Assembly: GCA_965231125.1 (NCBI GenBank)
Contig: OZ246414.1
Location: 81,739 to 145,738, forward strand
Source of the DNA: an uncultured Gammaproteobacteria bacterium
GTDB lineage: Bacteria > Patescibacteriota > Microgenomatia > Woykebacterales > RBG-16-39-9b
Length of the DNA stretch: 64,000 nucleotides
Reading direction: 5' to 3'
This document shows, piece after piece, positions 9,361-42,909 of this stretch. Positions within the stretch are counted from its first letter, which is position 1. Every line of letters begins with the position of its first letter. A model generated the notes under the pieces. That model had not been told where the DNA came from. It did not search any database and saw nothing but the letters and a program-made list of their open reading frames with translations. A program made the translations under genes and the position numbers.

Positions 9361-9450
9361 TGGCGGAGGGGGTGGGATTTGAACCCACGATACCCTTGCG
9401 GGCATGCACGCTTTCCAAGCGTGTGCACTAGGCCACTATGCGACCCCTCC
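9361..9450 (-). tRNA. tRNA-Ser (anticodon GGA)
   Basis: Reverse complement ggaggggtcgcatagtgg...ct-t-GGA-aa...long variable arm...gggttcaaatccc...ccctccgcca. Confidence 0.9.
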
Positions 9451-9484
9451 AAGTTCAGCCATTATACCAGAAAAATAAATTAAC

Positions 9485-9513
9485 TTGACTAGACAAGCAA
9501 GCAGTAGTATTAT
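9485..9513 (+). promoter_or_regulatory. sigma-70-type promoter TTGACT-N17-TATTAT for the GC-rich ORF
   Basis: TTGACT 9485-9490, 17-nt spacer, TATTAT 9508-9513. Confidence 0.45.
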
Positions 9514-9568
9514 TTGTTCCACAAGGACAGAGGTTTGTTTGGTCGGGCAAAAAGGAAGGAAGGTGCAC

Positions 9569-10051
9569 ATGAAACTCCGAGGAATCTTGACGATGCTATT
9601 CGCGATGTTCGCTTTCGCGCTCACCATCGTCGCGGCTCTCGCCGGTACGAGTGCTTCGTACGCGGTGCCGGCAACACAAGGCATCAAGACGACAAGCCAC
9701 CGACGCAGCTTGCTGGCAACGCTGCTGTTACCTGTAGCGTTCCTCGCAGGTCTACTGCTGACAATCACCAACATCAACGTGACGACGTCAACCGACACAC
9801 CGACGGACACACCGACCGCAAAACACCGCAGATGGGGCCTGTTCGCTCTGATCACTGGAGCAATCGGCGCTCTCATGCTGCTGTTACGACTGTCGACAAC
9901 CGGCACCGACGATCGAGTTCCGATCGAACGTCTGCAAACGCACCTTGACCAGAGCAGGTCGGGCGCGGGGACGAAGGGCGACGGCGACGTTCATCACAAA
10001 GAGGTCAACTACACGACTCCTGTTCCGGTAGCGGCTCCCGCCGGCACGTGA
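9569..10051 (+). CDS. GC-rich membrane/secreted protein (160 aa, unknown function)
   Basis: ATG 9569 preceded by ggaaggaagg. Signal-like MKLRGILTMLFAMFAFALTIVAALA, two further TM segments and a TDTPTDTPT repeat. Composition visibly GC-richer than the neighbours. Confidence 0.5.
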   Translation: MKLRGILTMLFAMFAFALTIVAALAGTSASYAVPATQGIKTTSHRRSLLATLLLPVAFLAGLLLTITNINVTTSTDTPTDTPTAKHRRWGLFALITGAIGALMLLLRLSTTGTDDRVPIERLQTHLDQSRSGAGTKGDGDVHHKEVNYTTPVPVAAPAGT

Positions 10052-10215
10052 ACATCGACGATCGGTACGTAAGCGCTCCTTTCCTTCCTTTCCGGTCGGA
10101 ACTGAGGCGCTCTAGCTAACTACTTAACCCGCTGGTTATTAAGTAGTTCAGTAACCAAGAACCAGCAAGTTTTCATCAGGACGTCCTGGCCCGACCACCA
10201 ACCTCGTCCTGTCTC

Positions 10216-10256
10216 AGCCCACCTTGTGTTTTCACCAGGTGGGCTTTACTTTTTTA
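10216..10256 (+). terminator. terminator hairpin closing the GC-rich insert (overlaps the Nudix stop)
   Basis: agcccacct / aggtgggct 9-bp stem followed by ttactttttt. Confidence 0.55.
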
Positions 10257-10716
10257 ATAACTCTCTTGCTTTTCGGAAAATTTCTTTATCACTTTTGAAG
10301 GAGAGGGTTCCTTCAACCTCATCGCTTGGTATCCACTGCGCGTCTTCCATTTCCCAATCGTGATCCGCTGGATCACCGGACAAATATTCCATCAGAAAAT
10401 ACGTAACTTTTTTCTTAACTAGCTGGCCTTCGAGTTTGTAGAAATATTCTATTGGTGAGAATTCTTGGACTATCTTTGCTTCCACTCCGCCTTCTTCTTT
10501 TACTTCGCGGACGGCAGTTGTTTGTCTGTCTTCGCCCGGATCAATAAGACCTTTGGGAAAAACCCAACCGTGGTGTTGGGAATGCTTTGTAAGGAGAATA
10601 TGAATTTGACTGTCCTCTTTTTTTAGTCCGGCTGGACGCAAGCTCCGCTTTAGTCGAGGACGTAAGCTCCGCTTATAGACAATGCCGCCAGCGCTTTTTT
10701 CAAATTTAAGAGCCAT
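10246..10716 (-). CDS. Nudix hydrolase
   Basis: Nudix box GLIDPGEDRQTTAVREVKEEGGVEA. Carries an N-terminal repeat-encoded insert KRSLRPRLKRSLRPAGLKK. Confidence 0.85.
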   Translation of the reverse strand: MALKFEKSAGGIVYKRSLRPRLKRSLRPAGLKKEDSQIHILLTKHSQHHGWVFPKGLIDPGEDRQTTAVREVKEEGGVEAKIVQEFSPIEYFYKLEGQLVKKKVTYFLMEYLSGDPADHDWEMEDAQWIPSDEVEGTLSFKSDKEIFRKARELLKK

Positions 10717-10783
10717 GTTTTTGCCTTTCAGCTTACTCTCTGGTAAAATTATACGCGTTTTTGAGGTAAAAAAGTAAATTCTT

Positions 10784-10859
10784 GCCCCCGTAGCTCAGTG
10801 GATAGAGCGCAACGTTGCGGACGTTGAGGCCGGAGGTTCGAATCCTCTCGGGGGCACCA
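10784..10859 (+). tRNA. tRNA-Arg (anticodon GCG)
   Basis: gcccccg ta gctc agtggata gagc g caacg tt-GCG-ga cgttg ... ggttcgaatcc ... cgggggc a cca. Confidence 0.85.
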
Positions 10860-10860
10860 T

Positions 10861-10950
10861 GGAGGGATGCCGGAGTGGTTTAACGGCCAGGTCTCGAAAA
10901 CCTTGGGTCCCGTAAGGGGCACGGAGGTTCAAATCCTCCTCCCTCCGCCA
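10861..10950 (+). tRNA. tRNA-Ser (anticodon CGA)
   Basis: ggagggatgccggagtgg..., anticodon loop ct-CGA-aa, long variable arm, encoded CCA. Confidence 0.9.
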
Positions 10951-10958
10951 CTAATATT

Positions 10959-11029
10959 GTCCCAGTAGCTCAGTGGAAAGATCGCTACGCGCTCTGCGAC
11001 CACTTCGTAGTCTAAAAGCGCAAAAACAT
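10959..11029 (+). pseudogene. tRNA-like 5' fragment fused to the dispersed repeat (not a functional tRNA)
   Basis: gtcccagtagctcagtggaaagatcgc mimics the acceptor and D-arm of the adjacent tRNA-Arg(CCG) (gtccctgtggctcaatggatagagcac). It continues as acgcgctctgcgacc... with no T-arm. Confidence 0.45.
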
Positions 11030-11105
11030 GTCCCTGTGGCTCAATGGATAGAGCACCAGTTTCCGGAACTGGGGATTGAGAGTTCGAATCTCTCCAGGGA
11101 CACCA
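11030..11105 (+). tRNA. tRNA-Arg (anticodon CCG)
   Basis: gtccctg tg gctc aatggata gagc a ccagt tt-CCG-ga actgg ... gagagttcgaatctctc cagggac a cca. Confidence 0.9.
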
Positions 11106-11123
11106 CTACCTTCTTAATATCAT

Positions 11124-11762
11124 TTAGCTGGCCATTTTGTGGAATAATTTTGAAAGGGTTTCGCCCAGACTGTCCATCCAAGAAGTTTTTGGAACTTCGC
11201 GGTAGGGCAAATATCTAAGCAGCGCGGATTTAACTTTTTCTTTTTCTTTGGGGTCAATAATCATTATTAACCTAGCTGGAAAATTTACTAAAGTGTCTAT
11301 GTTAAGGACGGTTGACCCGTGTTTTTCGGTAAACCAAAAATCATAAAGTTCTTCCCAAAGATAGTTGTGAGTGCCCGTGATAATACCTTGATTGGTAATT
11401 TTATGATTAAGGTTATCTGGTGGAACGGAAGCCAAAACGTAAGCTAAAAAGGCTATCGCCAAAACGGGCGCAATTATGAAAAACTCCCTAACAAAAACCA
11501 GAATTAGAATAATTAAAATTGTCAGCAAGACAACGTACATAAGCCATTTTTTCCCTCGCGGAATAAAAACGTGGGCGGGGGAGGCCCACTCATACAAGGT
11601 TTTTACCTCAAACTCGCCCTCTCCCTCCTGACCTTCAAGTTCAGCTATTTTTGAGTGAAGACTATCAAGTTGTTCTTTTAACCCTGCGATTTGGTTTTCT
11701 TTGCCAGCTTGAGGGTTTGGAGAAGGGTTTCTCTTAAAAAACCGTTTTTGAGCAGACGCCAT
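11124..11762 (-). CDS. membrane protein (2 TM, unknown function)
   Basis: 212 aa. N-terminal coiled segment, a hydrophobic hairpin, then a soluble C-terminal domain. Confidence 0.5.
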   Translation of the reverse strand: MASAQKRFFKRNPSPNPQAGKENQIAGLKEQLDSLHSKIAELEGQEGEGEFEVKTLYEWASPAHVFIPRGKKWLMYVVLLTILIILILVFVREFFIIAPVLAIAFLAYVLASVPPDNLNHKITNQGIITGTHNYLWEELYDFWFTEKHGSTVLNIDTLVNFPARLIMIIDPKEKEKVKSALLRYLPYREVPKTSWMDSLGETLSKLFHKMAS

Positions 11763-11845
11763 ATATTTTTATGATACTACTAAATTTGCGCTTTTCCAAG
11801 AGCCGTTGAATTTAACCAGCCTTTTTGTTAGAATTTGCACACTCT

Positions 11846-11935
11846 GGAGGGGTCGCATAGCTGGTCCATTGCACGGGTTTGCTAAACCCGCGAGCCTTTT
11901 GGCTCACGTGGGTTCGAATCCCACCCCCTCCGCCA
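11846..11935 (+). tRNA. tRNA-Ser (anticodon GCT)
   Basis: ggaggggtcgcatagctgg..., anticodon loop tt-GCT-aa, long variable arm, CCA. Confidence 0.9.
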
Positions 11936-12025
11936 GGAGAGGTGGCCGAGTGGTTTAAGGCGACGGTCTTGAAAACCGTTTCCCGAGTAATCGGGACGGG
12001 GGTTCGAATCCCTCCCTCTCCGCCA
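11936..12025 (+). tRNA. tRNA-Ser (anticodon TGA)
   Basis: ggagaggtggccgagtgg..., anticodon loop ct-TGA-aa, long variable arm, CCA. Directly abuts the previous tRNA. Confidence 0.9.
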
Positions 12026-12749: not shown

Positions 12750-13112
12750 TGGTGGAGATGATGGGTATTGCACCCATGTCCGTGAAAGAATGATAACCAG
12801 ATACTACAAGCTTAGCTAACCTTAATCTCCTTTGGCTCCTACCGGTTAGCAGGATCAGTACCAAAGCAGGTTGTTGATAAGTTCTGAGTAGATTTAGGTT
12901 ACCAACCTAAAAATAATCGTCTTGGCTCCTGTTGCACTCTTAGGGCTTCACCAAGATAAAGCTTAAAAGAGCGCTCGATTACGCGAAAGCGAGTCGAGAT
13001 GAAAATGCCTTGTTGGCATTTACGAATTTGCCTGCAGATTTAACGGCTTCTAACAAGCTTATGCCGGCTTGCATCTAACTCACCAGTCTCACCGTCGAAA
13101 TTAGACATCCCC
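12750..13112 (-). ncRNA. ssrA: tmRNA (ssrA)
   Basis: 5' ggggatgtctaatttcgacgg, 3' T-arm plus catctccacca with a G3:U pair. Tag ORF GCC AAC AAG ... TAA (13017-12979) encodes ANKAFSSRLAFA. Adjacent to smpB. Confidence 0.85.
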
Positions 13113-26364: not shown

Positions 26365-26431
26365 GGCAGGTGTATTTAAATTCTATCCTTTGATAGCTTT
26401 AAAAACAATCCTTATCAAGAAGGTGTCCTTA

Positions 26432-26537
26432 GCTAGCCATTAAGATGGCTAGCACAGGATTCGGGAGTACCCGAATCACTTGGATTTGGTTACGGAGAAT
26501 CCTTAGTCCAAAGGACGCGGGACACTTTAAGTGTCCC
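26432..26537. repeat. hairpin cluster containing the left copy of the 33-bp inverted repeat
   Basis: Four consecutive hairpins: 26432-26453 (9-bp perfect stem), 26456-26503 (aggattc/gaatcct outer stem), 26506-26516, 26519-26537 (gggacac/gtgtccc). The 33-mer 26465-26497 is the reverse complement of 33337-33369 (32/33). Confidence 0.6.
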
Positions 26538-29542: not shown

Positions 29543-29603
29543 GCAAAAGAAAAGGGCCGGTTCGTACATTAAGCATTTCTGCTTATTGCACTTACCGGCC
29601 CTT
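29543..29603 (-). terminator. terminator of the 1111-aa gene
   Basis: On the minus strand, aagggccggt / accggccctt 10-bp stem (32-nt loop with inner agca/tgct stem) followed by ttcttttg. Confidence 0.5.
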
Positions 29604-29609
29604 CGCAAC

Positions 29610-32600
29610 CTAAGCGGCTACAATCACAAATCCGCTATTGGGTTCTGGCACTGCGCTCGTAACTAGGTTGTTGTGGCCCATATAGACCATCTTGATGTAC
29701 CTGATGTAACGCTGCTTCTCCTCCTCTCCTATGTTCCTAATCGCTTCCCGTAGAACGTTATTGATTTGGTCCCAGCGATATTTGTCGACGATCATTTCCG
29801 CAAGCTTCATAGAGTATCGGGAGTCAATTTTTGCCCAGCGGGCAATAGTGACAGTCAGGCGATCAACGTCCATCTCCCTCATCGCCTTGCCTCTCTGGAC
29901 TCCATCTTGCTCTTTGAACCTAGAGAGCCACCAACTATTACCCTTTAGGCTCTTGGCGCTTTCCTTAACGAACTCGAGTTCGTCTGTCTCACTCCAGTGA
30001 CCAAGCTCCCGCGCCCTGGCTTTACCGAGACTGTTGTCGAACACTCGGTTCCACCAAACCCATTCCCCATCTCGAACAAATTTGGACTCTGACTCAGCAT
30101 CGTCCCCGATTCGGAAGGGGTAACCCTCGCTGATCCAGGAACCGTAGGTGCCTCCGGAGAAAGCGTGGGCCCGACCCAAAAGGGTGAGCTCCATCTCCCT
30201 CTCTTCCTGGTAAGCGATCGCTGGTCTGCGCAGATCCCAAATCATTCGCTCCATACCGATCCGGCGACCACCAGGAAGCCCGAGATCGAATCTGCCCTTC
30301 GGAATTACGATGGTGGGTAGGCCTTCGGTGTTCCGCCGGACTACGGGGACCACCTGCTGCACCCGGTTAGTCATCGCTTCTTGCAAAGCGTACTGAACCC
30401 TAGCCCGCTTTGGCTCCTCGGGCTGGTGAGCCCACATTGCGTACATGAAGTTACGCGCTGCAGTGGCGTTGTCGTAGTTCACCCGAATGAAGCTATCATA
30501 GCCGTACGTATTTGGGTTGGACAAGCGCACGTTAAGCACCGCCAACGCATTCATCTGACCTAGAATCGCCTCGTTCTGCAGCCAAACGGTGATAGGGTCT
30601 CGGACGGCAAACTCGATGGTACGGGTCCAATCGTCCTCGTCTCGGTAGTTGCGTACCCTGCTGGTGAACTCCTTAACTAGCGTGTCAAAGTCGGGCATCG
30701 CCCCATCACCAGCCGCCGAGTTTAGCCCTCGCTCGCGCTTGAGCTGATCCAAGGCGACTGCCATTGCCTCGGCGTACAAAGTTGCCTGAGCACCGTCGTG
30801 AGGCATCTTCTGCCAGGGTTCCTTGAAGAACCAGGCCCAGTCAAGTAGCGAGCGACGAAGCTCAACCCTTTCCTGGGACACCTCCACGAAACGCTCAAAT
30901 ATCTCGTTTCCGAGAACGTACGCTTCCCTTTCGTCCCGAGTCGGTTCTTTGATCTCCGAGAAGACAGCCTGCCATTCCTCATGAACAAGCTTGTCCGGTA
31001 TCTCTTCTGGACTAGGGATCGGCGCAAAAGCCTCCCCCCGATGCAGTTTGCCCAGAAGGTGGGCCTGGAACCGAGCGCACCGATGCAGAATCATGTACCG
31101 CCGGTCGCAGGTATAATCGATGCTCTCCCACTCACCACCGAAGTTGTTCTGGACATACCGAGCTACGTCCGCATCTTCCATATTCCAACCCTCACGTTTG
31201 GTCCGCATAGAGCGGGCCATCTGCCAGAATTGAATACGGTGCAGACGCTTTCTGCGTCGCTCGATATTTTCCGCCCTGTAGCGGAAGGTGGAGTGATCCA
31301 CCACTGGTTCCCAGCTACCGTAGGAAGGCTGGTAAACTAGCTTCCCTGTCTCCTTATCAACCTTGGATTTACCAGGACGGTATACCCAAGTCACGGTGGA
31401 TGGTTGCTCCACGTACACCGCGAGCTGCACGAGCTCCTTGAGAGCCTGTGCCTGGCTGACTGGATCCGAGGTTTGCGCCCCAAAAATATCCGCCAGAAGC
31501 CAAGGCTCGTTCATCTGCTCGCTTGGATACGAACGGTCCATGTTTTGGTCCACGAAGCTATCCTGATCGCGGAGCCAACGTGCCCACCATTTCTTTAGGG
31601 CTTTGCGACCCTTTGTCTTTTCGAGCTCTATCATCTCTTCTTCGGTGGGTATGCGGAATCCGCTAACTACCTCACCAGTTTTAGGATCGCGTTTCTGCTT
31701 CCGACGGACCGTTTCTTCGAAGTATTTCCACGTCGCCCCGTAACCGAAGTACTCGGTTCCATCCTCATCCGTATAGTAGAGGATTTTCTCCGAACACACT
31801 TTGTGAGCGAGCATGGTGCGGCCTTTTATGTTCAGGTCGCCCACGTCGATTTCGTACTTCTCAGTGTGCGGATTGTAGTGCAGGCCTTCGGGAAATTCCT
31901 GAAAGACCCCTTCACGAACGTTTGCACCATTGCGGTAATACTCCGCTTCCACGCGGCTGCGGAGTGCCTCTTTTTCAGCTTCAGACAGCTCTTCGAGCTC
32001 CCCGGTTTCGGGGTTCTCCACGAAGTAATACCACTGATCTGGTTCCTTCGGGCGAAGCTTCAGCCGAAGCGCGCGGCGGTAGACGTTGTCTTTCTCCCGC
32101 CATTCATCCATTGGTGCGTTGGGTTTGTGCGGTGGAGGGACTTTATTCAACCCTTCGTTGTTCACTGGAAGGTCTCCAGCTCCAACAGCAGGGTAGAACA
32201 CTCGATAGCGAGTAAAGTCCTCTCTCTTCGCGATATCCTCCGCGTGCAACTTGCGCATAACTTCCAGCCGGGAAGAGCCAGGGTTCTTTTTGAGAGCCCG
32301 ACGCATCCGGTGGTAGCTACGCGACACACGCCGAATTTCCCGGTGGTACATCCAGTTAGGATAGCGTCCACCGGGACCAATGTCTTGACGAACTCTAGCG
32401 TGGTTCAGCTCGGGCGAAAGAACGAACATGTTCGTGTCGATACGAACCTGCCCAAGAGAAACCTCAGAGTTCTCTATTTCTTGTTGAAGTTTCTGTACTT
32501 CTTCCCACATGTGCTTTTGTTTTACGGTGTCCGAGATTCCAAACGAGAGAGTGCTGATGAGAAACGGGTTTTTTCCCTTACGCTCAATAGCGTAGCATAG

Positions 32601-32945
32601 AATCGGTTCCCGCTCTCCCATTGGGAATTCGGGCTTTCCGTCTCTGCCAACCCGCCATACCCCGTCCCTTGGTACAACGACTCGCTCCTTAGGCTTGGCT
32701 GTAACCACTTCCATGAAGAAGCGGCGGCCACCCCTCTGCCCGTTGATCTGGAAACCTTGTTCCGAATACTGCGTCTCAGCCAGAGCTTTGAGCTCCTGCT
32801 CTAGCGATGGGAGACCAGCGTATGCCCCCGATCCATATTCGGCTGGGGTTATTACCAGATCCGGTATTCTACCGAACCTAGTTCCGGGAAGAGCTTCCTC
32901 GAACTCTTCGCCATAACCGTCACCGTCCCCATTACCATTTGTCAT
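29610..32945 (-). CDS. large GC-rich orphan protein (1111 aa, no recognisable domains)
   Basis: Uninterrupted ORF. Best start is ATG 32945 (MTNGNGDGDGYGEEF) with GAGGAGGA 8 nt upstream. No signal peptide or TM. Arg/Glu/Trp-rich. Confidence 0.7.
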   Translation of the reverse strand: MTNGNGDGDGYGEEFEEALPGTRFGRIPDLVITPAEYGSGAYAGLPSLEQELKALAETQYSEQGFQINGQRGGRRFFMEVVTAKPKERVVVPRDGVWRVGRDGKPEFPMGEREPILCYAIERKGKNPFLISTLSFGISDTVKQKHMWEEVQKLQQEIENSEVSLGQVRIDTNMFVLSPELNHARVRQDIGPGGRYPNWMYHREIRRVSRSYHRMRRALKKNPGSSRLEVMRKLHAEDIAKREDFTRYRVFYPAVGAGDLPVNNEGLNKVPPPHKPNAPMDEWREKDNVYRRALRLKLRPKEPDQWYYFVENPETGELEELSEAEKEALRSRVEAEYYRNGANVREGVFQEFPEGLHYNPHTEKYEIDVGDLNIKGRTMLAHKVCSEKILYYTDEDGTEYFGYGATWKYFEETVRRKQKRDPKTGEVVSGFRIPTEEEMIELEKTKGRKALKKWWARWLRDQDSFVDQNMDRSYPSEQMNEPWLLADIFGAQTSDPVSQAQALKELVQLAVYVEQPSTVTWVYRPGKSKVDKETGKLVYQPSYGSWEPVVDHSTFRYRAENIERRRKRLHRIQFWQMARSMRTKREGWNMEDADVARYVQNNFGGEWESIDYTCDRRYMILHRCARFQAHLLGKLHRGEAFAPIPSPEEIPDKLVHEEWQAVFSEIKEPTRDEREAYVLGNEIFERFVEVSQERVELRRSLLDWAWFFKEPWQKMPHDGAQATLYAEAMAVALDQLKRERGLNSAAGDGAMPDFDTLVKEFTSRVRNYRDEDDWTRTIEFAVRDPITVWLQNEAILGQMNALAVLNVRLSNPNTYGYDSFIRVNYDNATAARNFMYAMWAHQPEEPKRARVQYALQEAMTNRVQQVVPVVRRNTEGLPTIVIPKGRFDLGLPGGRRIGMERMIWDLRRPAIAYQEEREMELTLLGRAHAFSGGTYGSWISEGYPFRIGDDAESESKFVRDGEWVWWNRVFDNSLGKARARELGHWSETDELEFVKESAKSLKGNSWWLSRFKEQDGVQRGKAMREMDVDRLTVTIARWAKIDSRYSMKLAEMIVDKYRWDQINNVLREAIRNIGEEEKQRYIRYIKMVYMGHNNLVTSAVPEPNSGFVIVAA

Positions 32946-33086
32946 TTGTGTTTCCTCCTCGCTGTTGAACCACCTCGACTTAGTCGAGGGTGCTGACCGG
33001 CAAACTTTCTTTGTGAGAACTGTTTCCCACTTTGGTGTTTGCTGGATCAGCAGCAACACCAAGGGGCGGCCGAAGGCCAGTTTTAA

Positions 33087-33113
33087 ATTATAAGACGCGG
33101 GACATATGTCCAA
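33087..33113 (-). promoter_or_regulatory. candidate promoter (TTGGAC-N15-TATAAT) overlapping palindrome ggacatatgtcc
   Basis: Minus-strand TATAAT is the reverse complement of 33087-33092. TTGGAC is the reverse complement of 33108-33113. The spacer is short (15 nt). Confidence 0.3.
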
Positions 33114-33204
33114 AACACTAGAATCTTACATCCTAAATCTGACATCCATCCGTCCCTCGGTGTTACCTATACTAAGGAGGGGTCCTGGTTTTCACCGGGA
33201 CTTC

Positions 33205-33233
33205 GACTTGTCTAACGACAAGTCTTGTTTTTT
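33205..33233 (+). terminator. plus-strand terminator-like hairpin with no obvious upstream plus-strand gene
   Basis: gacttgtc-taac-gacaagtc perfect 8-bp stem followed by ttgtttttt. A second hairpin plus T-rich tract lies at 33260-33290. Confidence 0.45.
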
Positions 33234-33336
33234 GCTTGTTACCTCAATTTTTCGGCGTACTACAGGTTTAATCCTGTAGTTCTTTTGATCTTTATTCGTT
33301 TTTTAAGGTGCACATTAGCTTTTCGAAAATAGATCG

Positions 33337-33399
33337 CTCCGTAACCAAATCCAAGTGATTTGGGTACTCTCGCGTTCTGTGCTTTAAAAAAGCTAAGGG
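33337..33399. repeat. right copy of the inverted repeat (33-mer plus extended imperfect arm)
   Basis: ctccgtaaccaaatccaagtgatttgggtactc (33337-33369) is the reverse complement of 26465-26497 with 1 mismatch. The arm continues ...gttctgtgct..agctaaggg, matching 26427-26457. Confidence 0.65.
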
Positions 33400-33817
33400 C
33401 TCTGGGTGACAAATTTCTTATCAACCAGAGCCCACCTTCGGGGTCCTATGAAGGGACACCTCAACTCGGAGGTGGCTCTGGATTATTTAGTTTAATTTTA
33501 AGTTCGCCCTTACTCATTTTTTCTAGCCTCTACTGACTGGCCGAATTTTAGCATAACTTAGCTTAAATGTCAACTATAAGTCATTTTGTAACTTCGAAAC
33601 CTGCGAGCTCTTGGTTTCTCAGGTACTCTCACGTCTCGCGCTAGGCGTCTTAACGCCTAGCTAAGAGCGCATCGGTTTTTATTCGCGCAGTACGATACAG
33701 TTTGACTCGGTTGCTTTTAGCCTCCCCATGAGCCATAATAATCCCTACAATAGTCGTAAAAAGCTATTTTTCGGCGAAGGATCAGCGAAGCGAGCCGAAG
33801 TATTGTAACCAAAAGTT

Positions 33818-34342
33818 ATGCAACAGCATCCTGTCCCACAGAACATAACAAGTTTTGAATTTAAGCTAGTTGGGTTTCTGACGATTAAGCAATTCGGCTA
33901 TCTTGCCGCTGCCGGAATTTTTTCCTTTGTCTTTTTCATTTCTCCAATACCGACCCTTTTAAAAACTATCGTTATTACTCCTTTTGCCGCAGCCGGACTT
34001 GCCTTTGCTTTTGCTAACATAAACGGTCTCTCGTTTGACAAGTGGATCGTTGCCTTTATTCACTCGGTCTATTCCCCGTCAAGAAGGGTTTGGCACAAAG
34101 TGCCGAAGGAGATAAGTTTTCTCGCGCCAAATTTTTCCTACTATCTCAAGCGGCCGCCTACCCAACAAAAAATTGCCAGTGGCGATCGGACTCGTTTAGA
34201 AAAATATCTTGCGCAGTTGCGAAACCAGCGTTTTAATTCTAATCTCGATGTTTTTGAGGAAATGCGCCTTTCAAAAATTGACTTTAGGGCGACTGTTCCT
34301 CACTTTACAACCGTAGACTCCCAAAGGGATGAAGGCGACTGA
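33818..34342 (+). CDS. PrgI-like (VirB3 analogue) membrane protein
   Basis: 174 aa. The N-terminus HPVPQNITSFEFKLVGFLTIKQFGYLAAAG followed by two TM segments is the pattern I associate with PrgI family proteins of Gram-positive-type T4SS. Confidence 0.55.
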   Translation: MQQHPVPQNITSFEFKLVGFLTIKQFGYLAAAGIFSFVFFISPIPTLLKTIVITPFAAAGLAFAFANINGLSFDKWIVAFIHSVYSPSRRVWHKVPKEISFLAPNFSYYLKRPPTQQKIASGDRTRLEKYLAQLRNQRFNSNLDVFEEMRLSKIDFRATVPHFTTVDSQRDEGD

Positions 34343-36564: not shown

Positions 36565-38428
36565 TCCTTTTAAAAAAAGGGAAAAGGTTGACCCGGTAGA
36601 AGCAGAACTGGCTCAAACCCGAGCAAAAGTGGCCAATGTTCTCGGTAGGGGAATGACAGATGTAAAGGACGTGATTGCTCCACCGGCCATTGAAATCGAC
36701 TTTGATTACTTAAGAATTGGTGAGTTGTACTTCCGCACATTATTTATCACTGGCTACCCTCGCTTTGTCGGTGCTAATTGGCTGGCTCAAATTATAAATT
36801 TTGACCATACCCTTGATATTTCCTTCTACTACTACCCCGTTGAATCGAAGGGAATACTTGACGATCTGCGGCGAAAAATCGCCGAGATGGAGGCTACGAT
36901 TGAAAGCGACCTAGAGGCAGGTAGAGTCTTAGATCCTGGGGTCCGAATTGCTTTAGAGGATGCTCAAGCCCTCCAGGAACAGCTAACCGCTGGTATCGAA
37001 CGCTTCTTCCAGTTTTCTTTCTACATAACCATACCCGCTTACTCCTTAGAAGAACTCAACTCTGTTACCAAACAAGTAGAAGCGGCCCTTGGGTCTCTTT
37101 TGGTCGTCTCCAAGCACGCGACGCTACAACAAGAACAGGCTTTTCAATCTGTCTTACCTACCTTCACCGATAAACTTTTGGTGACTCGGAACATGGACAC
37201 GACTTCTTTGGCTACAACTTTTCCTTTTGTTTCTAGCGAGCTAACTGCTAATGAAGGGGTTATGTACGGCATTAACGAACACAATGGATCTTTGGTCATT
37301 TTTGACCGCTTTAGCCTGGAAAATGCAAACTGCGTCGTCTTTGCAAAATCCGGAGCCGGAAAAAGCTACTTAGTTAAACTGGAGACTTTGCGTCAATTAA
37401 TGTTTGGCACTGAAGTTTTAGTTATCGATCCAGAAAACGAGTATCAAGCCTTAGCCGAGGCGATTGGAGGAGAATATATGGAATTTAAGGCCGAGTCCGG
37501 AATAAAAATAAACCCCTTCGATCTTTCCGGTATCTACCAGCAAGGAGAAAACGAACTAGGTTTAAAAATTTTGGCTCTTCACTCCCTTTTCCGAATTATG
37601 ATGGGTCAGCTAACGCCAATGGAAGATGCTGTTTTAGACAGAGCCTTGGTTGCTACCTATAAATTAAAGGGTATAACTCCAGACCCGGCCACCCAAACAA
37701 GACAGCCGCCGATTATGGAGGACCTTTACAATATCTTACTTAACATGGCGGAGCCGGAAGCTAAGGGAATGGCAACTCGTCTGGAAAAATTCATTCGGGG
37801 TTCTTTATCCGGTGTATTTAATGAGCAAAGCAATATTAACCTTAGAAATACCTTTACTGTTTTTTCTATCCGTGATATGGAGGACGAACTGCGCCCAATT
37901 GCAATGTTCATCGTCTTAGACTTTATCTGGACGAGGATCAAAAGAAATCTTAAAAAGCGGGTTCTTGTGGTAGACGAGGCTTGGTATTTAATGAAGTACC
38001 CTGACTCAGCTGCTTTCATGTACTCCATCGCAAAAAGAGCCCGTAAATACTTTTTAGGGGTGACAACAATAACTCAAGACGTCGAAGACTTTCTTTCTGG
38101 AGATTACGGTAAGGCAATTGTTACTAACTCATCTATGCAATTTCTATTAAAGCAGTCACCGGCGGCGATAGATGCAGTTACTGATATTTTTTATTTGTCC
38201 GAGGGGGAGAGAAATTTACTGCTTTCTGCCGAGATCGGCGAGGGCCTTTTCTTTGCTGGCCCTAACCACGTGGCTATTAGGGTTCAGGCTGCACCACACG
38301 AACACGGGTTAATTACTTCAAACCCAGCTGAGCTTGTTGAGAGTAACCAGCCCTCAAATATTTCCGCGCCAAACAGCCCCCCGACAGAAGAAACTACTTA
38401 TCCGGGGTCTACCCCAAACCAACTCTAA
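36554..38428 (+). CDS. VirB4/TraC/PrgJ-like type IV secretion ATPase
   Basis: 624 aa. Walker A FAKSGAGKSY, Walker B RVLVVDEAW, and a VirB4-like N-terminal domain (FRTLFITGYPRFVGANWL). Confidence 0.85.
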   Translation: MQLNPFKKREKVDPVEAELAQTRAKVANVLGRGMTDVKDVIAPPAIEIDFDYLRIGELYFRTLFITGYPRFVGANWLAQIINFDHTLDISFYYYPVESKGILDDLRRKIAEMEATIESDLEAGRVLDPGVRIALEDAQALQEQLTAGIERFFQFSFYITIPAYSLEELNSVTKQVEAALGSLLVVSKHATLQQEQAFQSVLPTFTDKLLVTRNMDTTSLATTFPFVSSELTANEGVMYGINEHNGSLVIFDRFSLENANCVVFAKSGAGKSYLVKLETLRQLMFGTEVLVIDPENEYQALAEAIGGEYMEFKAESGIKINPFDLSGIYQQGENELGLKILALHSLFRIMMGQLTPMEDAVLDRALVATYKLKGITPDPATQTRQPPIMEDLYNILLNMAEPEAKGMATRLEKFIRGSLSGVFNEQSNINLRNTFTVFSIRDMEDELRPIAMFIVLDFIWTRIKRNLKKRVLVVDEAWYLMKYPDSAAFMYSIAKRARKYFLGVTTITQDVEDFLSGDYGKAIVTNSSMQFLLKQSPAAIDAVTDIFYLSEGERNLLLSAEIGEGLFFAGPNHVAIRVQAAPHEHGLITSNPAELVESNQPSNISAPNSPPTEETTYPGSTPNQL

Positions 38429-39528
38429 ACTTTAACTTCGACAGTTCCTTCATTAACTTTAAAAATTTTACTCTCCTTTAAAATCCACTCAGGGAAGATA
38501 GTCTCCGAAGTGGCGGTGATAATACTTTGCTGCTTTGGCAAAGCCTTAAGTATATGTTCTTGGTTAATTTTATCAAACTCACTTAAAACATCGTCCAAAA
38601 GAAGGGTAGGGTCGGTGCCGAAACTCTCTTTAATAAAGGCTAGCTCGACCAATTTTAAGGCTAAGGTGGCAAGTCTTTTCTCACCCCGAGATCCAAAGAT
38701 ATTAATATCTTTTTCCAGAAGCACGTCCGACTTTAAAGTTTCAAACACTATTTTGAAATCGTCTCGGTGGGGACCAAAAGACGTTACCATTTTTTCGATA
38801 TCGGTTTCTTTGTTTTTTACTAGTTGCAGGCTAATTAGCCTTTTTATTTCACTGGCGTCTTTAACTTTTTCTTTGAACGGCGCGTAATCTATGCGTATAG
38901 TCGCGTTTGCAATTTTTTCACTGGTTTTTTTCAGAAGCTTGTTTATCTCTCCAACAAACGCGAGCCGCCTCTCCCAAATGAAGCTTCCTAGGCTGGCAAT
39001 CTGTTTGTCCCAAGGCAAAAGGTCTTGGGGTTTACCTGCCTTTATAAGCCAGAGGAGTTTATTGCGGTTTTTCATGGCTCTAAAGTACCGGCTCAAAGAG
39101 TAGAGATAGTTTTTATCCGTCACCGAAAGGGTCTGGTCTAAAAACCGTCGTCTTTTTTCCGGACCGCCGGAAACAATATCCAAGCTTTCTGGTGAGAACA
39201 GGACTACCGGAAAGACTCCAATTACGGAGGCTCTGTTTTTGGGTTGATTGTTAACAGAAACTTTTTTCATCGTTTTGTTGATAAGAATTTTAATTTCGTT
39301 ATGCGCGGCGTTACCCCTAACTTGGGCTTCTTCCGCAGCCCAATTAATTAGATCCGCGTCGATATTCGTCCGAAACGATTTCGTGGTGGCTAAAAGATAA
39401 ATGGCTTCAATTATATTTGTCTTACCTTGAGCGTTATTACCGACAAGCAGATTAATTTTCTGAGAAAGAGGTAGTTTCAAATTTGAAATGTTTCTAAAAT
39501 TTTTTAAATAGAGGTTTTCTAACCACAT
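38425..39528 (-). CDS. recF: DNA replication/repair protein RecF
   Basis: 367 aa: LKNFRN...GNNAQGKTNIIEAIYLL and signature LLLDDVLSEFD. Confidence 0.9.
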   Translation of the reverse strand: MWLENLYLKNFRNISNLKLPLSQKINLLVGNNAQGKTNIIEAIYLLATTKSFRTNIDADLINWAAEEAQVRGNAAHNEIKILINKTMKKVSVNNQPKNRASVIGVFPVVLFSPESLDIVSGGPEKRRRFLDQTLSVTDKNYLYSLSRYFRAMKNRNKLLWLIKAGKPQDLLPWDKQIASLGSFIWERRLAFVGEINKLLKKTSEKIANATIRIDYAPFKEKVKDASEIKRLISLQLVKNKETDIEKMVTSFGPHRDDFKIVFETLKSDVLLEKDINIFGSRGEKRLATLALKLVELAFIKESFGTDPTLLLDDVLSEFDKINQEHILKALPKQQSIITATSETIFPEWILKESKIFKVNEGTVEVKV

Positions 39529-40631
39529 TAGTTCTGGGTTCGAACCGGCATAACAAGATACATAAATGAGGGGTCTTCGGCAGACTTTATCAGTGCTGGT
39601 TTATCGGGGCCGGCGAATTGAACCTCAAACTTTTCGCCGGTTAGTACTCCTACGCCCTCGGCGAGAAAACGACTGTTAAAAGATATTTTGATATCCTGTC
39701 CCTTAACTTTAGCCTGTAGACTTACCCTTCCTTCCCCAATTTGCGCTGAAGAAGCGCTTATAGATTGCTCTTTCTCGCTAAAGAGTAGGTGAACAACATT
39801 TCCGATATCTTTTGCAAAGGTGGTCGCCGTTTTTAGATTACTAAGAAAATCCTCTTTTTCTAAGAGAGCACTCGCGATAAATTGATCTGGAATTATTTGT
39901 TCAAACTTAGGGAATTCTCCCGCAAGTAGTTTTGTAAATACTTCTGTATGGGCTACTTCAAAGTAGGCTTGATTATCGCCCCGCGATATACCTATATTTA
40001 TAAACTCATCTTCTGATTCATCAAGAATTTTGCTTGACTCCATAAGTACACGCGCCGGAACAATTACTTCTTCCTCGTCCAGAAGGACTCCCATATCTTT
40101 TTTGGCGAGCCGATAACCGTCGGTTGCAACTAGCTGAGTGTTTTCTTTATTGGTCCTAAACAAGACTCCTGTTAGGATTGGTCGCCCTTCGTCTAAACTT
40201 GCAGCTACCCCTACTTGTTTTACCGAAGACAAGAGAGATTTTTTTTTAATTTTTTTGCTTTTTGATTTCTCTGCTTCCGGTGGGGTGGGGAACTCGCTGG
40301 CGGAAATTGTCGGCACGCTCGCGTGCGTTTTGGCGGTGTTGATCACTAAGCTTTCTTTTTCTAATTCTAATGATATCTTCTCGTCCGCTACACTAGCCAA
40401 AAACTCAATTAAAGTTCTTGCTGGAGCGGTTACTGCCCCTTCATTTAAAATCTTCGCTGGGACCCAGGTTTTGATTGTTGTTTCTAAATCCGTACCAATT
40501 AATCTCAACCCCCCAGATTCTGTTTCCATGAGGATATTACCTAAGACCGGAGTTGTCGGTTTAACCGTCACTGCTTTACCAACAAAACTGACCGCTTTGT
40601 AAATATCATCTTTGTTGATCTGTAATTTCAT
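39528..40631 (-). CDS. dnaN: DNA polymerase III beta sliding clamp
   Basis: Start at ATG 40631 (MKLQINKDDIYKAV). Three-domain clamp length. PILGNILMET, TDGYRLA. Confidence 0.9.
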   Translation of the reverse strand: MKLQINKDDIYKAVSFVGKAVTVKPTTPVLGNILMETESGGLRLIGTDLETTIKTWVPAKILNEGAVTAPARTLIEFLASVADEKISLELEKESLVINTAKTHASVPTISASEFPTPPEAEKSKSKKIKKKSLLSSVKQVGVAASLDEGRPILTGVLFRTNKENTQLVATDGYRLAKKDMGVLLDEEEVIVPARVLMESSKILDESEDEFINIGISRGDNQAYFEVAHTEVFTKLLAGEFPKFEQIIPDQFIASALLEKEDFLSNLKTATTFAKDIGNVVHLLFSEKEQSISASSAQIGEGRVSLQAKVKGQDIKISFNSRFLAEGVGVLTGEKFEVQFAGPDKPALIKSAEDPSFMYLVMPVRTQN

Positions 40632-40765
40632 ATATAGTATATATAATATAATAGTAGTATTAGGCGGTGTCAAAATGTCAGTAACTAGATGCAGGTTACA
40701 ATGACGTTAGAGGGCAGCAAAGGACACACTTCTCTGTGCAAAACATGTGAGCAGAAGGTGAGTAA
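40632..40765. other. dnaA-dnaN intergenic region with AT-rich tract (candidate origin/DUE)
   Basis: tatatagtatatataatataatagtagtatta at 40631-40662. I could not find clear consensus DnaA boxes. Confidence 0.25.
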
Positions 40766-42160
40766 CTACACCCCGTTTATGGAGTTTGTGAAAACACGCG
40801 CCCTTATCTGAGTGATTAATCCACGAGTTTTTGACGAGCCGTCAAGCAGGCGTTTGATTTTTTCCACAGAGTAAATCACACTGGTGTGGTCGGACTTGTT
40901 TAACAAGGAGGCGATTTTTTGCAGCGGTAGAGTTAGATCCATTCTCAGAATGTACATAGCTATCTGGCGAGGGAACACAATGTCAGACCGGCGGCTCGCG
41001 CTTTTCAAATCCTTTATCGAAAGCGAGAAGTATTTAGCCACCTGTAAAATAACAAAATCTGAGTTTGTCTGCGCGGTCTTCTCAAGACGGGTCAACTGAA
41101 GAACTTGCTGGACTAAATCTTCTGAGACAGGCTGGTTAGAAAATTTAGAATAAGTTAGCAGTCTAATGAAACCACCTTCAAGATCACGGATATTATTAAC
41201 GTAGACCTGCGCCAAAAGGCGGATTATTTTAGTCGGAAGCTGGACGCTTCGATCTTTACATTTTTGATAAAGTACAGCTTCGCGAAGTTCGAACTCTGGA
41301 GCGGCGATGTCGGCTATCATCCCGGCCTCAAAACGACTTTTTAATCTTTCGGCAAGACGGCCAATTAAAGCCGGCTGTCGATCGGCGGCCAAAACTACCT
41401 GTTTTCTCGCCGCGAATAGAGCATTGAAAGTGTGGAAGACCTCCTCTTGGGTAGATTCCCGTCCTGATAAAAACTGGACATCGTCGATCACGAGTAGATC
41501 AGCACTGCGGTATTTAGCTCTAAAATTAGTAGTCGTCTTGGTTTGAATGGCAGCAACTAAATCATTAGTAAATTCTTCACAGGTAGAATAGAAGACTTTA
41601 AGTTTGGGATTTTTCGCTAAAGCCTCCTGGGCAATAGCCTGGATGAGATGAGTCTTACCAACCCCAACCCCGCCGTAAATGAAAAGGGGGTTGTAAGGCT
41701 TGTCACCAAGTTCGGAGACCGCTTTAGCGGCAGCATAAGCGAGTTGGTTACTTTTGCCGGAGACGAAAGCGTTGAAGGAAAAGGCCGGGTTAAGCCGTGC
41801 CTTTGTTAAAGCTTCCTGTAATTCATCAACGTCGGTATTAGTGAAAAGCGCTGGCAATGAGTAAGCTTCCCGTACCCTTCTGAGTTTAGATTTGTTGGTA
41901 ACCTCTTTTTCCAAAGGGCGAACGCTAAAAACGATGCTAATATTTTTGGCAGTAGCTTTGTCTAAAATAGATTTAATTTGGCCATGGTAGCGAGATTCCA
42001 GCCAGTTTTTTACGTAGGAAGAGCTGCAGCCAATTTCTACCAAATTTTCGTCCAAAGAAACTAAGGTGGTCTTTCCTTTAAACCAAGTCTGAAAATTTGC
42101 AGCCGATAAATCCATCTGCAATTGAGCTAAGGTTGATTCCCAAAGATTATTTTTATCCAT
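40766..42160 (-). CDS. dnaA: chromosomal replication initiator DnaA
   Basis: Start at ATG 42160 (MDKNNLWESTLAQLQ). AAA+ GGVGVGKTHL, LLVIDDVQFL, C-terminal DNA-binding KSASRRSDIVFPRQIAMY. Confidence 0.95.
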   Translation of the reverse strand: MDKNNLWESTLAQLQMDLSAANFQTWFKGKTTLVSLDENLVEIGCSSSYVKNWLESRYHGQIKSILDKATAKNISIVFSVRPLEKEVTNKSKLRRVREAYSLPALFTNTDVDELQEALTKARLNPAFSFNAFVSGKSNQLAYAAAKAVSELGDKPYNPLFIYGGVGVGKTHLIQAIAQEALAKNPKLKVFYSTCEEFTNDLVAAIQTKTTTNFRAKYRSADLLVIDDVQFLSGRESTQEEVFHTFNALFAARKQVVLAADRQPALIGRLAERLKSRFEAGMIADIAAPEFELREAVLYQKCKDRSVQLPTKIIRLLAQVYVNNIRDLEGGFIRLLTYSKFSNQPVSEDLVQQVLQLTRLEKTAQTNSDFVILQVAKYFSLSIKDLKSASRRSDIVFPRQIAMYILRMDLTLPLQKIASLLNKSDHTSVIYSVEKIKRLLDGSSKTRGLITQIRARVFTNSINGV

Positions 42161-42392
42161 AAGATGGCAATTAATGACGTCCTCCCCGAGCCAAGTCGGG
42201 GTTGCCGACGTTTTCTCGCCCCGATAAATCGGGCCTCGAAAATAAATCACGCGAGCGTGATGGGCCGAGTTAAGGACTCGGTAGGCAGGGGGTAGATCTT
42301 TCAAAAGAGGTAAAACTATATTAGGTAAAAGTACCGAGACGGTCAAGAAGGACATACTACTACCTTTCTGTATCAGTAGATTCTGGGCGCAT

Positions 42393-42421
42393 TTGACATT
42401 GGTAGAGTCCTTATCTATACT
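42393..42421 (+). promoter_or_regulatory. TTGACA-N17-TATACT promoter 6 nt upstream of the rpmH start
   Basis: TTGACA 42393-42398, TATACT 42416-42421, GTG 42428. Confidence 0.5.
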
Positions 42422-42427
42422 ACTCTC

Positions 42428-42565
42428 GTGCCAAAAAGAACGTACCAACCAAAAAAATTAAAAAGAGCCAAAAAACACGGCTTTCGGGCTAGGGCCAAAA
42501 CAAAAGGCGGACAACAAGTCCTTAAAAGAAGAATATTAAAGGGAAGAAAACGACTTTCGGTTTAA
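42428..42565 (+). CDS. rpmH: 50S ribosomal protein L34 (absent from the ORF track because it is under 60 aa)
   Basis: GTG start. Translation (M)[44 protein letters not shown]. Stop TAA 42563-42565 overlaps the rnpA ATG. Confidence 0.9.
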
Positions 42566-42909
42566 TGCTCCCGAAAAGAAATAGATTAAATTTAAAAAAA
42601 GACAGGTTTTTAAAAGGGAGTACTCAATTTGCGAGCCCCTTTTTTAAGTTGCTTTTAAAGAAAAGCGCAGGAGACGGACCAAAGATCGGGTTTATTGTCA
42701 GTGGTAAAGTAGGCAAGGCGGCTTCTCGAAACCGGGTTAAAAGACTACTGTCCGAGGCAGCGGCAAGTAAATTAGAAATGATTTCCGAAGACGCTCTCCT
42801 CATTTTTATCGCTTTTCCTGCTTCTGGCAAAGCCGGTCTGGAGGAAATAAAAACTAGTGTTGATGATACCCTCTCTAAAGCAAAAATACTCAAAGGAGGA
42901 AGTCTATAA
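42565..42909 (+). CDS. rnpA: ribonuclease P protein component
   Basis: 114 aa, LPKRNRL...FIVSGKVGKAASRNRVKR. Canonical rpmH-rnpA-yidC order. Confidence 0.85.
   Translation: MLPKRNRLNLKKDRFLKGSTQFASPFFKLLLKKSAGDGPKIGFIVSGKVGKAASRNRVKRLLSEAAASKLEMISEDALLIFIAFPASGKAGLEEIKTSVDDTLSKAKILKGGSL

Follow-up and report, generated by a model that had tools for sequence, protein, structure and literature searches.

In the classical attenuators, such as those of trpL, hisL and pheL, a ribosome at the end of a short leader open reading frame (ORF) masks one half of the antiterminator. The pheL attenuator is described in PMC3082878. In Salmonella, mgtP, a leader ORF of 18 amino acids (aa) with three consecutive proline codons, selects between alternative stem-loops (PMC5299641), and elongation factor P (EF-P) affects read-through at intrinsic terminators (PMC5021804). 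The locus analyzed here lies in the window, a stretch of 64,000 nucleotides (nt) from contig OZ246414.1 (positions 81,739 to 145,738; assembly GCA_965231125.1). In it, an 872-nt gap (32946-33817) separates two divergent genes, encoding a 1111-aa protein on the minus strand and a PrgI-like protein on the plus strand. The source organism is a member of Microgenomates, a group of the Candidate Phyla Radiation (CPR), and its closest PrgI relatives are Woykebacteria. The analysis traced the window to an 82-kb JGI contig (3300010391, Ga0136847_10506507), and the strain is also present in SRR6155503/4.

This gap very probably encodes a structured regulatory RNA. It is rather likely that most of it consists of a promoter and a leader RNA of roughly 590 nt (32946-33538, minus strand; extent taken from the promoter and the start codon), which precedes the 1111-aa gene and combines ribosome-mediated attenuation with sequestration of the Shine-Dalgarno (SD) sequence. 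The evidence is entirely computational; promoter, upstream ORF (uORF), alternative helices, conservation, covariation and strand were all computed.

Like trpL, hisL and pheL, the locus displays, in this order, a promoter, a short ORF in the leader, predicted antiterminator and terminator hairpins that overlap, a U-tract and the gene thought to be controlled. Unlike them, it has no codon run for one biosynthetic amino acid upstream of the antiterminator 5' half (segment A), its switch is composed of three segments (A, B and C) instead of four, and the regulated gene is non-biosynthetic, encoding a large, fast-evolving protein of a secretion locus. The closest functional analogue appears to be Salmonella mgtP. 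Both leaders are long (296 nt for mgtCBR in Salmonella, ~590 nt here), and both contain, going by the published description of mgtP, a succession of three proline codons within a leader ORF of ~18 aa that lies next to alternative stem-loops. The phyla are unrelated, however, there is no sequence homology, and an extra translational tier (segments X, Y and Z) is present here. Moreover, the proline codons directly follow and overlap the antiterminator 5' half, so that stalling should favor termination, whereas stalling in mgtP favors read-through.

As for rnTrpL of Sinorhizobium (PMC6614838, PMC7298713), a prematurely terminated leader of ~150 nt could accumulate as a small RNA (sRNA) and its peptide could have a role; unlike for rnTrpL, no target or trans function can be deduced here. 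The translational tier resembles RNA thermometers and translational riboswitches in that its anti-SD segment, Y, can pair with a decoy, X, or else with the genuine SD region, Z. In Rfam, no known family of aptamers or thermometers matches it.

Conservation and Folding of the Intergenic Region

Relatives of the locus are designated L followed by a number. In L031, the gene order is that of the window and the gap measures 815 nt. The Woykebacteria-like loci L032/L033, L034 and L035, reached through PrgI homologues, contain a minus-strand gene of 920-985 aa, a gap of 720-830 nt and then PrgI. L046 was obtained from a metagenome scan, and L055-L062 are extra partial or rearranged loci. The sample comprises six full-length leaders (window, L031, L032, L034, L035 and L046) and 9-10 partial ones. 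The DNA of the gap aligns with that of the five relatives in clear conserved blocks, and the proteins encoded downstream are at most 46% identical or beyond the reach of BLAST. In five- and six-way alignments alike, the region is conserved in the relatives that carry the flanking genes; the initial annotation had named a lack of such conservation as grounds for refutation, and the region withstands this check. The metagenome scan used the three-segment pattern GGGCTCTG..CCAGAGCCC..GGCTCTGG; 17 of its 19 matches belong to an unrelated GC-rich element, and only L046 and L051 are true relatives. The unrelated element occupies 17 JGI metagenome contigs (L036-L054 except L046 and L051) and has several closely spaced GGCTCTGG repeats.

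Over its entire length of 872 nt, the gap folds far beyond chance, with z = -6.7 (plus strand) and -12.7 (minus strand). For a 620-nt leader, the values are -6.3 (plus) and -9.5 (minus), and ten other 620-nt stretches of the window range from +2.0 to -2.4. The longest ORFs in 32946-33817 are 58, 57 and 54 aa, so none reaches 60 aa. A search of the same interval against Rfam 15 gave no match at gathering thresholds; at E-values up to 10, only two chance-level matches appeared, MIR868 (20 bits, cutoff 200) and Enterococcus-1 (14 bits, cutoff 71). The initial annotation had described a hairpin-dense, non-coding region with plus-strand terminators, as a candidate sRNA or large non-coding RNA. Each element that it named is present, at the place given or within 1-2 nt, and its general picture holds, since the region is structured, without a long ORF and conserved; the strand and the element that it singled out were wrong.

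Promoter and Strand of the Predicted Transcript

A promoter, P2, was recognized on the minus strand at 33545-33573 (TTGACA, a 17-nt spacer with TGn, TAAAAT), matching the consensus at 11 of 12 positions. It is the only promoter-like site found in 32700-34000. A TTGAC[A/T]-17-TAnnnT arrangement with an extended -10 TG stands at the homologous place in nine of nine relatives, with a spacer of variable sequence. The predicted transcription start is at ~33538.

The strand is indicated by several measures. In the six full-length leaders, the minus strand folds better by 14-36 kcal/mol in every case, and leader z-scores run from -7 to -11 on this strand vs. -5 to -7 on the other. The RNAalifold energy is -64.4 kcal/mol for the minus strand and -52.0 for the plus strand, and 89.8% vs. 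79.4% of the cells of the consensus structure are paired (slid controls: 33-46%). G.U cells on the minus strand number 60, against 16 A.C cells, which correspond to G.U on the plus strand. In the consensus structure, derived from the six-sequence alignment on which it was then tested, 17 of 72 pairs are changed on both sides, a number reached in none of 500 shuffles. Taken together, the transcript indicated by the promoter, by the helices with G.U pairs, by the folding energies and by the small ORF kept in relatives is one of the minus strand, directed toward the 1111-aa gene. Inspection of the alignments revealed neither a second conserved minus-strand promoter between 33385 and 32946 nor a conserved plus-strand promoter for an antisense RNA.

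The RNA proposed initially was a plus-strand sRNA of about 33175-33233, ending at a plus-strand terminator, or alternatively an insulator or antisense element. A terminator-like pair of hairpins with a T-run does exist at 33182-33236 on the plus strand: a perfect 8-bp stem (33205-33224) is followed by TTGTTTTTTG, the hairpin at 33182-33201 contains a T.G pair that would be functional on the plus strand only, and L034 has a different perfect hairpin in front of the same T-run. A second such site lies at 33259-33280, followed by TCTTTTGATC. The number of terminator-like sites is not enriched (3 found vs. 1.7 ± 1.4 expected). The segment of roughly 48 nt that holds the hairpin pair is missing in all five aligned relatives (L031, L032, L034, L035 and L046), and a promoter-like site on the plus strand was not found. 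Unlike the hairpin pair, the T-run is conserved; it is equally an A-run of the minus-strand leader, and the global strand signal favors the minus strand. This plus-strand model (sRNA, insulator or antisense element) is extremely improbable, but given the different hairpin of L034, a plus-strand terminator function is conceivable.

The Upstream Open Reading Frame

The uORF, which the initial annotation had not noticed, is located at 33461-33517 on the minus strand, ~20 nt downstream of the predicted start of transcription. It has 18 codons and a stop (MSKGELKIKLNNPEPPPS followed by the stop), its AUG is at 33517, and a GAGG SD sequence is found 9 nt upstream (33527-33530). The aligned AUG opens an ORF of 17-19 codons in eight of nine lineages, with a proline-rich end within a few codons after segment A. 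Before the stop codon, the peptides read PEPPPE in L031, PEPPPEW in L034, PEPPPW in L035, PEPQRKR in L046 and L056, SPPG in L057 and ISP in L061. The ninth lineage, L032, has a 1-nt deletion in an A-run, and its restored frame ends in PEPPPKR and a stop. At ~9700 of L032 (also in L033 and L051), A6 stands in place of the A7 of L034, so that the AUG and the PEPPPKR end, itself intact, are in different frames; either an error of sequencing or true phase variation could explain this.

Three consecutive proline codons (PPP) are thus found at the end of the uORF in five lineages (L032 after frame correction), PPG in one, a proline followed by the stop in one and PEPQRKR in two. PPP, PPG and proline-stop are known as slow or EF-P-dependent contexts of translation (PMC5299641, PMC5021804). 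The indels between the lineages are multiples of three, and synonymous changes of the proline codons occur (CCA/CCG, CCU/CCA and CCG/CCU/CCC/CCA). (G/A)AGG is present 8-9 nt upstream in five of eight sequences. By shuffling, such an ORF arises by chance at 0.04-0.056 per sequence. The uORF is presumably translated.

A Putative Three-Segment Switch in the 5' Domain

Segment A (CCAGAGCC, 33474-33481, minus strand) is the putative 5' half of an antiterminator and coincides with the Pro-Glu-Pro codons (CCA-GAG-CC) of the uORF. It is followed by hairpin H1 (CACCUC/GAGGUG, 33457-33474, minus strand), which holds the PPP codons and the stop codon of the uORF. Every relative has a hairpin at this position, with differing stems: CCUC/GAGG, CCGC/GCGG, CCAC/GUGG and CACC/GGUG. 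Segment B (GGGCUCUGG, 33433-33425) is complementary both to A and to segment C (33397-33405). The stem ccagagcccacc/ggtggctctgg at 33425-33481 had already been noticed; the copy of GGGCTCTGG at 33397-33405, which supplies a third partner for it, had not.

Pairing of B (33425-33433) with C gives a predicted terminator hairpin of 16 pairs, followed by UUAGCUUUUUU (33385-33435, minus strand). It corresponds to the RNAalifold helix of columns 129-165, which is 99% paired with three pairs changed on both sides, and many of its G.U pairs are impossible on the plus strand. Across loci, the stem measures 16-20 bp, and a U-rich tail follows C in eight of eight relatives. B:C belongs to the minimum free energy state of the full RNA. 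For the window, L057 and L061, a transcript folded to just before C adopts A:B, and the whole RNA adopts B:C. From this arrangement, B:C may terminate transcription.

In L057, the three segments have changed together, to CAAAGCC, GGCUUUGG and CCAAAGCC, and in L061, there is a G.U within B:C. As MAFFT misplaces A and B of these two loci, covariation there was read directly from the sequences and was not counted by the pair-counting tool. The triple change of L057 appears to be the best single piece of evidence for selection on both pairings. Several features that define a leader-peptide attenuator were thus found: a same-strand upstream promoter, a short conserved ORF with start codon and ribosome-binding site, and mutually exclusive helices, with the uORF overlapping the antiterminator 5' half.

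The promoter, the uORF and B:C could also form an independent gene of ~150 nt with a terminator of its own, producing an sRNA and/or an 18-aa micro-protein; the large gene would then have a separate promoter, and the other hairpins would be its 5' untranslated region (UTR). B:C is indeed very stable (16-20 bp) and thermodynamically preferred, L008 is without the 5' domain even though the 3' domain is present, and RNAs derived from attenuators can act in trans, as rnTrpL does (PMC6614838). On the other hand, A duplicates C, is complementary to B and covaries in L057, none of which a plain terminator needs. No conserved second minus-strand promoter was seen by inspection between 33385 and 32946, and the TATAAT at 33087-33092 is not conserved. 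Furthermore, the 5' domain adjoins the large gene in L057/L058, although a gene for 354 aa and a ParE pair part it from PrgI there, and a covariance model of the 5' domain matches only upstream of the large gene, L057/L058 included. The element, consequently, belongs to the large gene and not to PrgI, and an independent small gene is considered unlikely.

The 3' Domain and a Putative Shine-Dalgarno Switch

Downstream of the predicted terminator, a central block, GCACCUUAACAnGCGAAUA...CCGAAAAAU (33250-33318, minus strand), consists of invariant columns in the five- and six-way alignments. It contains the hairpin at 33259-33280 (helix 3), whose position is kept and whose stems differ in a covarying manner (ACUACAGG/CCUGUAGU vs. 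AAACC/GGUUU). A long hairpin is then formed by X (33153-33167) and Y (33053-33066), spanning 33053-33167 on the minus strand. This X:Y pairing is a 13-bp helix (columns 428-440 with 531-543) with many A-U/G.U alternations on the minus strand and a duplex energy of -20 to -43 kcal/mol across loci. Its apex is variable, yet self-complementary in each lineage, and in the window it includes the palindrome at 33100-33111.

This palindrome (ggacatatgtcc) and the 11-mer GACGCGGGACA (gacgcgggaca), which recurs at 26514 and 33094, were both confirmed, and they had been proposed as a protein-binding site next to a TATAAT. The 11-mer is weakly unusual (at least two matches in nine of 100 shuffles) and occurs in none of the relatives. 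As a regulator site, it was rejected: it is confined to one strain, and the spacing of the palindrome half-sites differs (7 nt vs. 2 nt). A proximal promoter at the TATAAT of 33087-33092 with the palindrome as its operator was likewise discarded, since both lack conservation and the palindrome merely forms the variable tip of the conserved X:Y hairpin.

Beyond X:Y, a branched domain is closed by UGCUGCUGAUCCAGCA/UGCCGGUCAGCA (32991-33055, minus strand). Its helices 6-8 are 91%, 75% and 88% paired, and double-sided pair changes occur in each of them. Helix 9, CCUCGAC uua GUCGAGG (32973-32989, minus strand), stands immediately upstream of the SD sequence; four of its seven pairs are changed on both sides, for example, to CCCCGAC/GUCGGGG and UCCCGAU/AUCGGGA. 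Segment Z (CAACAGCGAGGAGG, 32954-32968, minus strand) contains the SD sequence of the 1111-aa gene. Segment Y (CCCCUUGGUGUUG) is complementary to both X and Z. The Y:Z duplex has an energy of -16 to -30 kcal/mol across ten loci, and in nine loci, both Y:Z and X:Y are stable. In L008, X, Y and Z have changed together, to AUCAUCGAGGGG, CCCCUUGAUGAU and UAUCAAGGAGG. The same locus appears to carry the 3' domain without the uORF domain, from which it follows that the two tiers are separable.

This branched, conserved domain, which has a switch that sequesters the SD sequence but lacks a uORF, also agrees with a riboswitch for a ligand, a tRNA or a protein, whose helices would be driven by the bound effector; the weak conservation of the uORF peptide would fit a uORF that is incidental. 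Against this stands the uORF itself, which keeps its frame, length and proline-rich end despite indels and overlaps A exactly. Rfam, moreover, gave no match even at E = 10 beyond the chance-level ones, and a riboswitch is regarded as very improbable.

Proposed Mechanism

Under the attenuation and SD-sequestration reading, a strong sigma-70 promoter would initiate the transcript near 33538. With A free of ribosomes as B emerges, the A:B antiterminator would form and RNA polymerase would read on. A ribosome on the uORF, held over A and H1 by a polyproline or proline-stop stall, would instead leave B to pair with C; B:C and the U-tract would then stop transcription near 33385 and release an RNA of ~150 nt. 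In the second tier, Y of the read-through RNA would pair either with the decoy X, leaving the SD sequence free, or with Z, blocking it. The direction given here to the first tier is tentative, with somewhat less than an even chance of being right. Candidate signals are translation capacity, the proline or EF-P status, or starvation; these, like the direction of regulation, are inferred.

Several observations weigh against this mechanism. The sample of leaders is small. Six sequences show no variation in the core 8 bp of A, B and C, whose covariation comes from L057 only, along with a shift of register in L061. Behind C, the U-tract is interrupted (UUAGCUUUUUU), and the consensus terminator scan did not flag B:C. 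The consensus structure was tested on its own source alignment, as mentioned. The uORF of L032 carries a frameshift, and those of L046 and L056 (PEPQRKR), L057 (SPPG) and L061 (ISP) have no PPP. The uORF peptide is poorly conserved, with differences by codon position of 22/52/51, i.e., without the third-position excess typical of coding sequences; leader peptides are usually poorly conserved in sequence. L008 seems to have one tier only, and the mechanism does not account for the plus-strand terminator-like element of this strain and of L034. Finally, the transcription start, the 3' end and the translation of the uORF are predictions.

Repeat Module M and the PrgI Side

The remainder of the gap faces PrgI. 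The predicted promoter of the PrgI operon (TTGCTT, 17 nt, CATAAT; 33711-33739) and an upstream box, TACGATACAGTTTGACTCGG (33691-33713), together span 33691-33739 on the plus strand. Conservation of this box and of TTGnTT-17-CATAAT extends to L031, L032, L034, L035, L046, L056 and L008. The predicted 5' UTR of PrgI contains the hairpin uucggc...gccgaa (33769-33799, plus strand), the cttcggc/gccgaag stem reported before. L032, L034 and L035 share its conserved block, UUUUUCGGCGAA...GAAG, and a plus-strand G.U pair occurs in L032.

Three copies of a unit of 60-85 nt, module M, occur in the window: GTAAC, a hairpin, GGTACTCYC...YCTGYG, a second hairpin and CTAAGG. Copy RA (33337-33396) is the right arm of an inverted repeat and matches 26451-26497 at 89% in inverted orientation. 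This repeat, reported initially, was recovered as 26451-26497 vs. 33337-33383 (47 nt, 89% complementary), and a weaker second copy lies at 33619-33665. Copy RB (33585-33668; GTAAC-hairpin-GGTACTCTC...CGCG-hairpin(ctaggcgtcttaacgcctag)-CTAAG) is found between the two divergent promoters and includes the ggtactctc module seen earlier, at 33622-33668. The left arm, copy L (26426-26497), is located between the 485-aa and 296-aa genes, which diverge; only compensated changes set its second hairpin, ctagCCATcttaATGGctag, apart from that of RB, ctagGCGTcttaACGCctag. In this same interval, adjoining copy L, a self-complementary promoter-like sequence, TTGATA-N17-TATCAA (26401-26429), reads the same on both strands. 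RA is present at the homologous position only in the window and L031 and is missing in L032, L034, L035 and L046; M-like cores occur at the RB position in L035 and L056. Module M is a lineage-specific repeat.

Same-strain Logan contigs (L002, L003, L005 and L006) end or start at 33343/33358, in the first hairpin of RA, and overlap by only 16 nt. The contigs of L055, L056 and L060 begin at a distance of 149-485 nt upstream of PrgI. Such breaks may come from strain variation or from repeats. A 6.8-kb inversion was examined as the cause of the Logan breaks and is not supported, because the exact shared core of the repeat (24 nt) is shorter than the k = 31 of the Logan assembly, and the left repeat copy is unbroken.

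A function mainly at the level of DNA was weighed for the elements, whether as the ends of a mobile or invertible 6.8-kb cassette, as a site of the secretion locus for recombination or similar to an origin of transfer (oriT), or as arrays of operators for a transcription factor (module M and the three GGGCTCTGG sites). The inverted repeat does exist, and its right copy is where independent same-strain assemblies break. RB and L are placed between divergent promoters, in stretches without a predicted transcript, and the GGGCTCTGG cores are invariant in six sequences. However, the gene order across the supposed cassette is identical in relatives without module M, and the left copy is intact. The compensatory changes and the 60:16 asymmetry of G.U are properties of RNA rather than of duplex DNA, and patescibacterial type IV secretion system (T4SS) loci generally lack relaxases (PMC12102498). 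Such a mainly DNA-level role is quite improbable.

In the relatives, the stretch between the leader of the large gene and PrgI is a hotspot of insertion. A YafQ toxin pair is inserted in L008 (9309-9843), a ParE toxin pair and a 354-aa gene in L057 (2973-4724), a gene of the bAvd/23S_rRNA_IVP type in L061 (3826-4913) and roughly 300 nt in L046 (~770-1070). The bAvd gene suggested a diversity-generating retroelement; this idea was abandoned, no pair of template and variable repeats being found within the window.

The Large Protein and Its Genomic Neighborhood

The 1111-aa gene (29610-32945, minus strand; ATG at 32945-32943) had been taken for an orphan, and its product has no Pfam match. A full HMMER scan of 1.84 billion representatives yielded 23 cluster representatives at E <= 1e-3, of ~900-1170 aa. 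The word index gave one homologue, P0002, with 46% identity, on contig L031, and a tblastn search of the 24 PrgI-anchored genomes returned zero matches. BLAST connects only some of the large proteins of the relatives' loci, the others being too divergent; the 1111-aa protein joins these syntenic proteins by profile comparison only (hhalign probability 95%, E = 2.5e-8). On this sequence comparison, it appears to be orthologous by position, though very divergent, to the large proteins of Woykebacteria T4SS loci and not a true orphan. Between it and the convergent VirB6-like gene, a 24-bp inverted repeat (29552-29603, 83% complementary, 4-nt loop) resembles a bidirectional terminator.

The PrgI-like gene, starting at 33818 on the plus strand, is the first of a T4SS block that continues with a 498-aa protein, a TraC-like protein and VirB4. 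The genes recF, dnaN and dnaA come directly after VirB4 (38425-42909). As the T4SS locus adjoins these genes, the replication origin is probably located in the 42449-42909 gap; patescibacterial T4SS loci typically adjoin dnaA (PMC12102498), and a T4SS at the origin is reported for some Patescibacteria. Elsewhere in the window, six tRNA genes (four Ser and two Arg) are clustered at 9361-12025, with a transfer-messenger RNA (12750-13112, minus strand) in the vicinity; a seventh tRNA gene, for Asn, is at 919-993. A search for efp in the 64-kb window gave no match, which is uninformative, since the genome includes a 915-kb contig.

Significance for Gene Regulation in the Candidate Phyla Radiation

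Gene regulation in CPR bacteria, or Patescibacteria, is almost unexplored. A literature search returned nothing that links Patescibacteria with leader peptides or attenuation, and in a survey of patescibacterial T4SS loci, the word "promoter" is absent (PMC12102498). Such loci are thought to mediate host dependence, and one cultured species cannot grow epibiotically without PrgI (PMC12102498). The leader DNA is much better conserved than the 1111-aa protein encoded behind it, which evolves far faster; this indicates a tight control over when the variable protein is made.

It is conceivable, though on the doubtful side, that the locus represents an undescribed two-tier leader RNA, restricted to one group of CPR bacteria, in which a polyproline uORF attenuator and an SD-decoy switch let an ultra-small episymbiont couple its translational or nutrient state (proline, EF-P, starvation) to the expression of a hypervariable giant protein of its T4SS locus. 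If this two-tier reading is true, no ribosome-mediated attenuator and no cis-regulatory RNA family would have been defined in the CPR before this leader. The attenuation model itself predicts where the transcript starts and stops, a stalling motif and compensatory mutants, and it provides a covariance model applicable to all CPR genomes.

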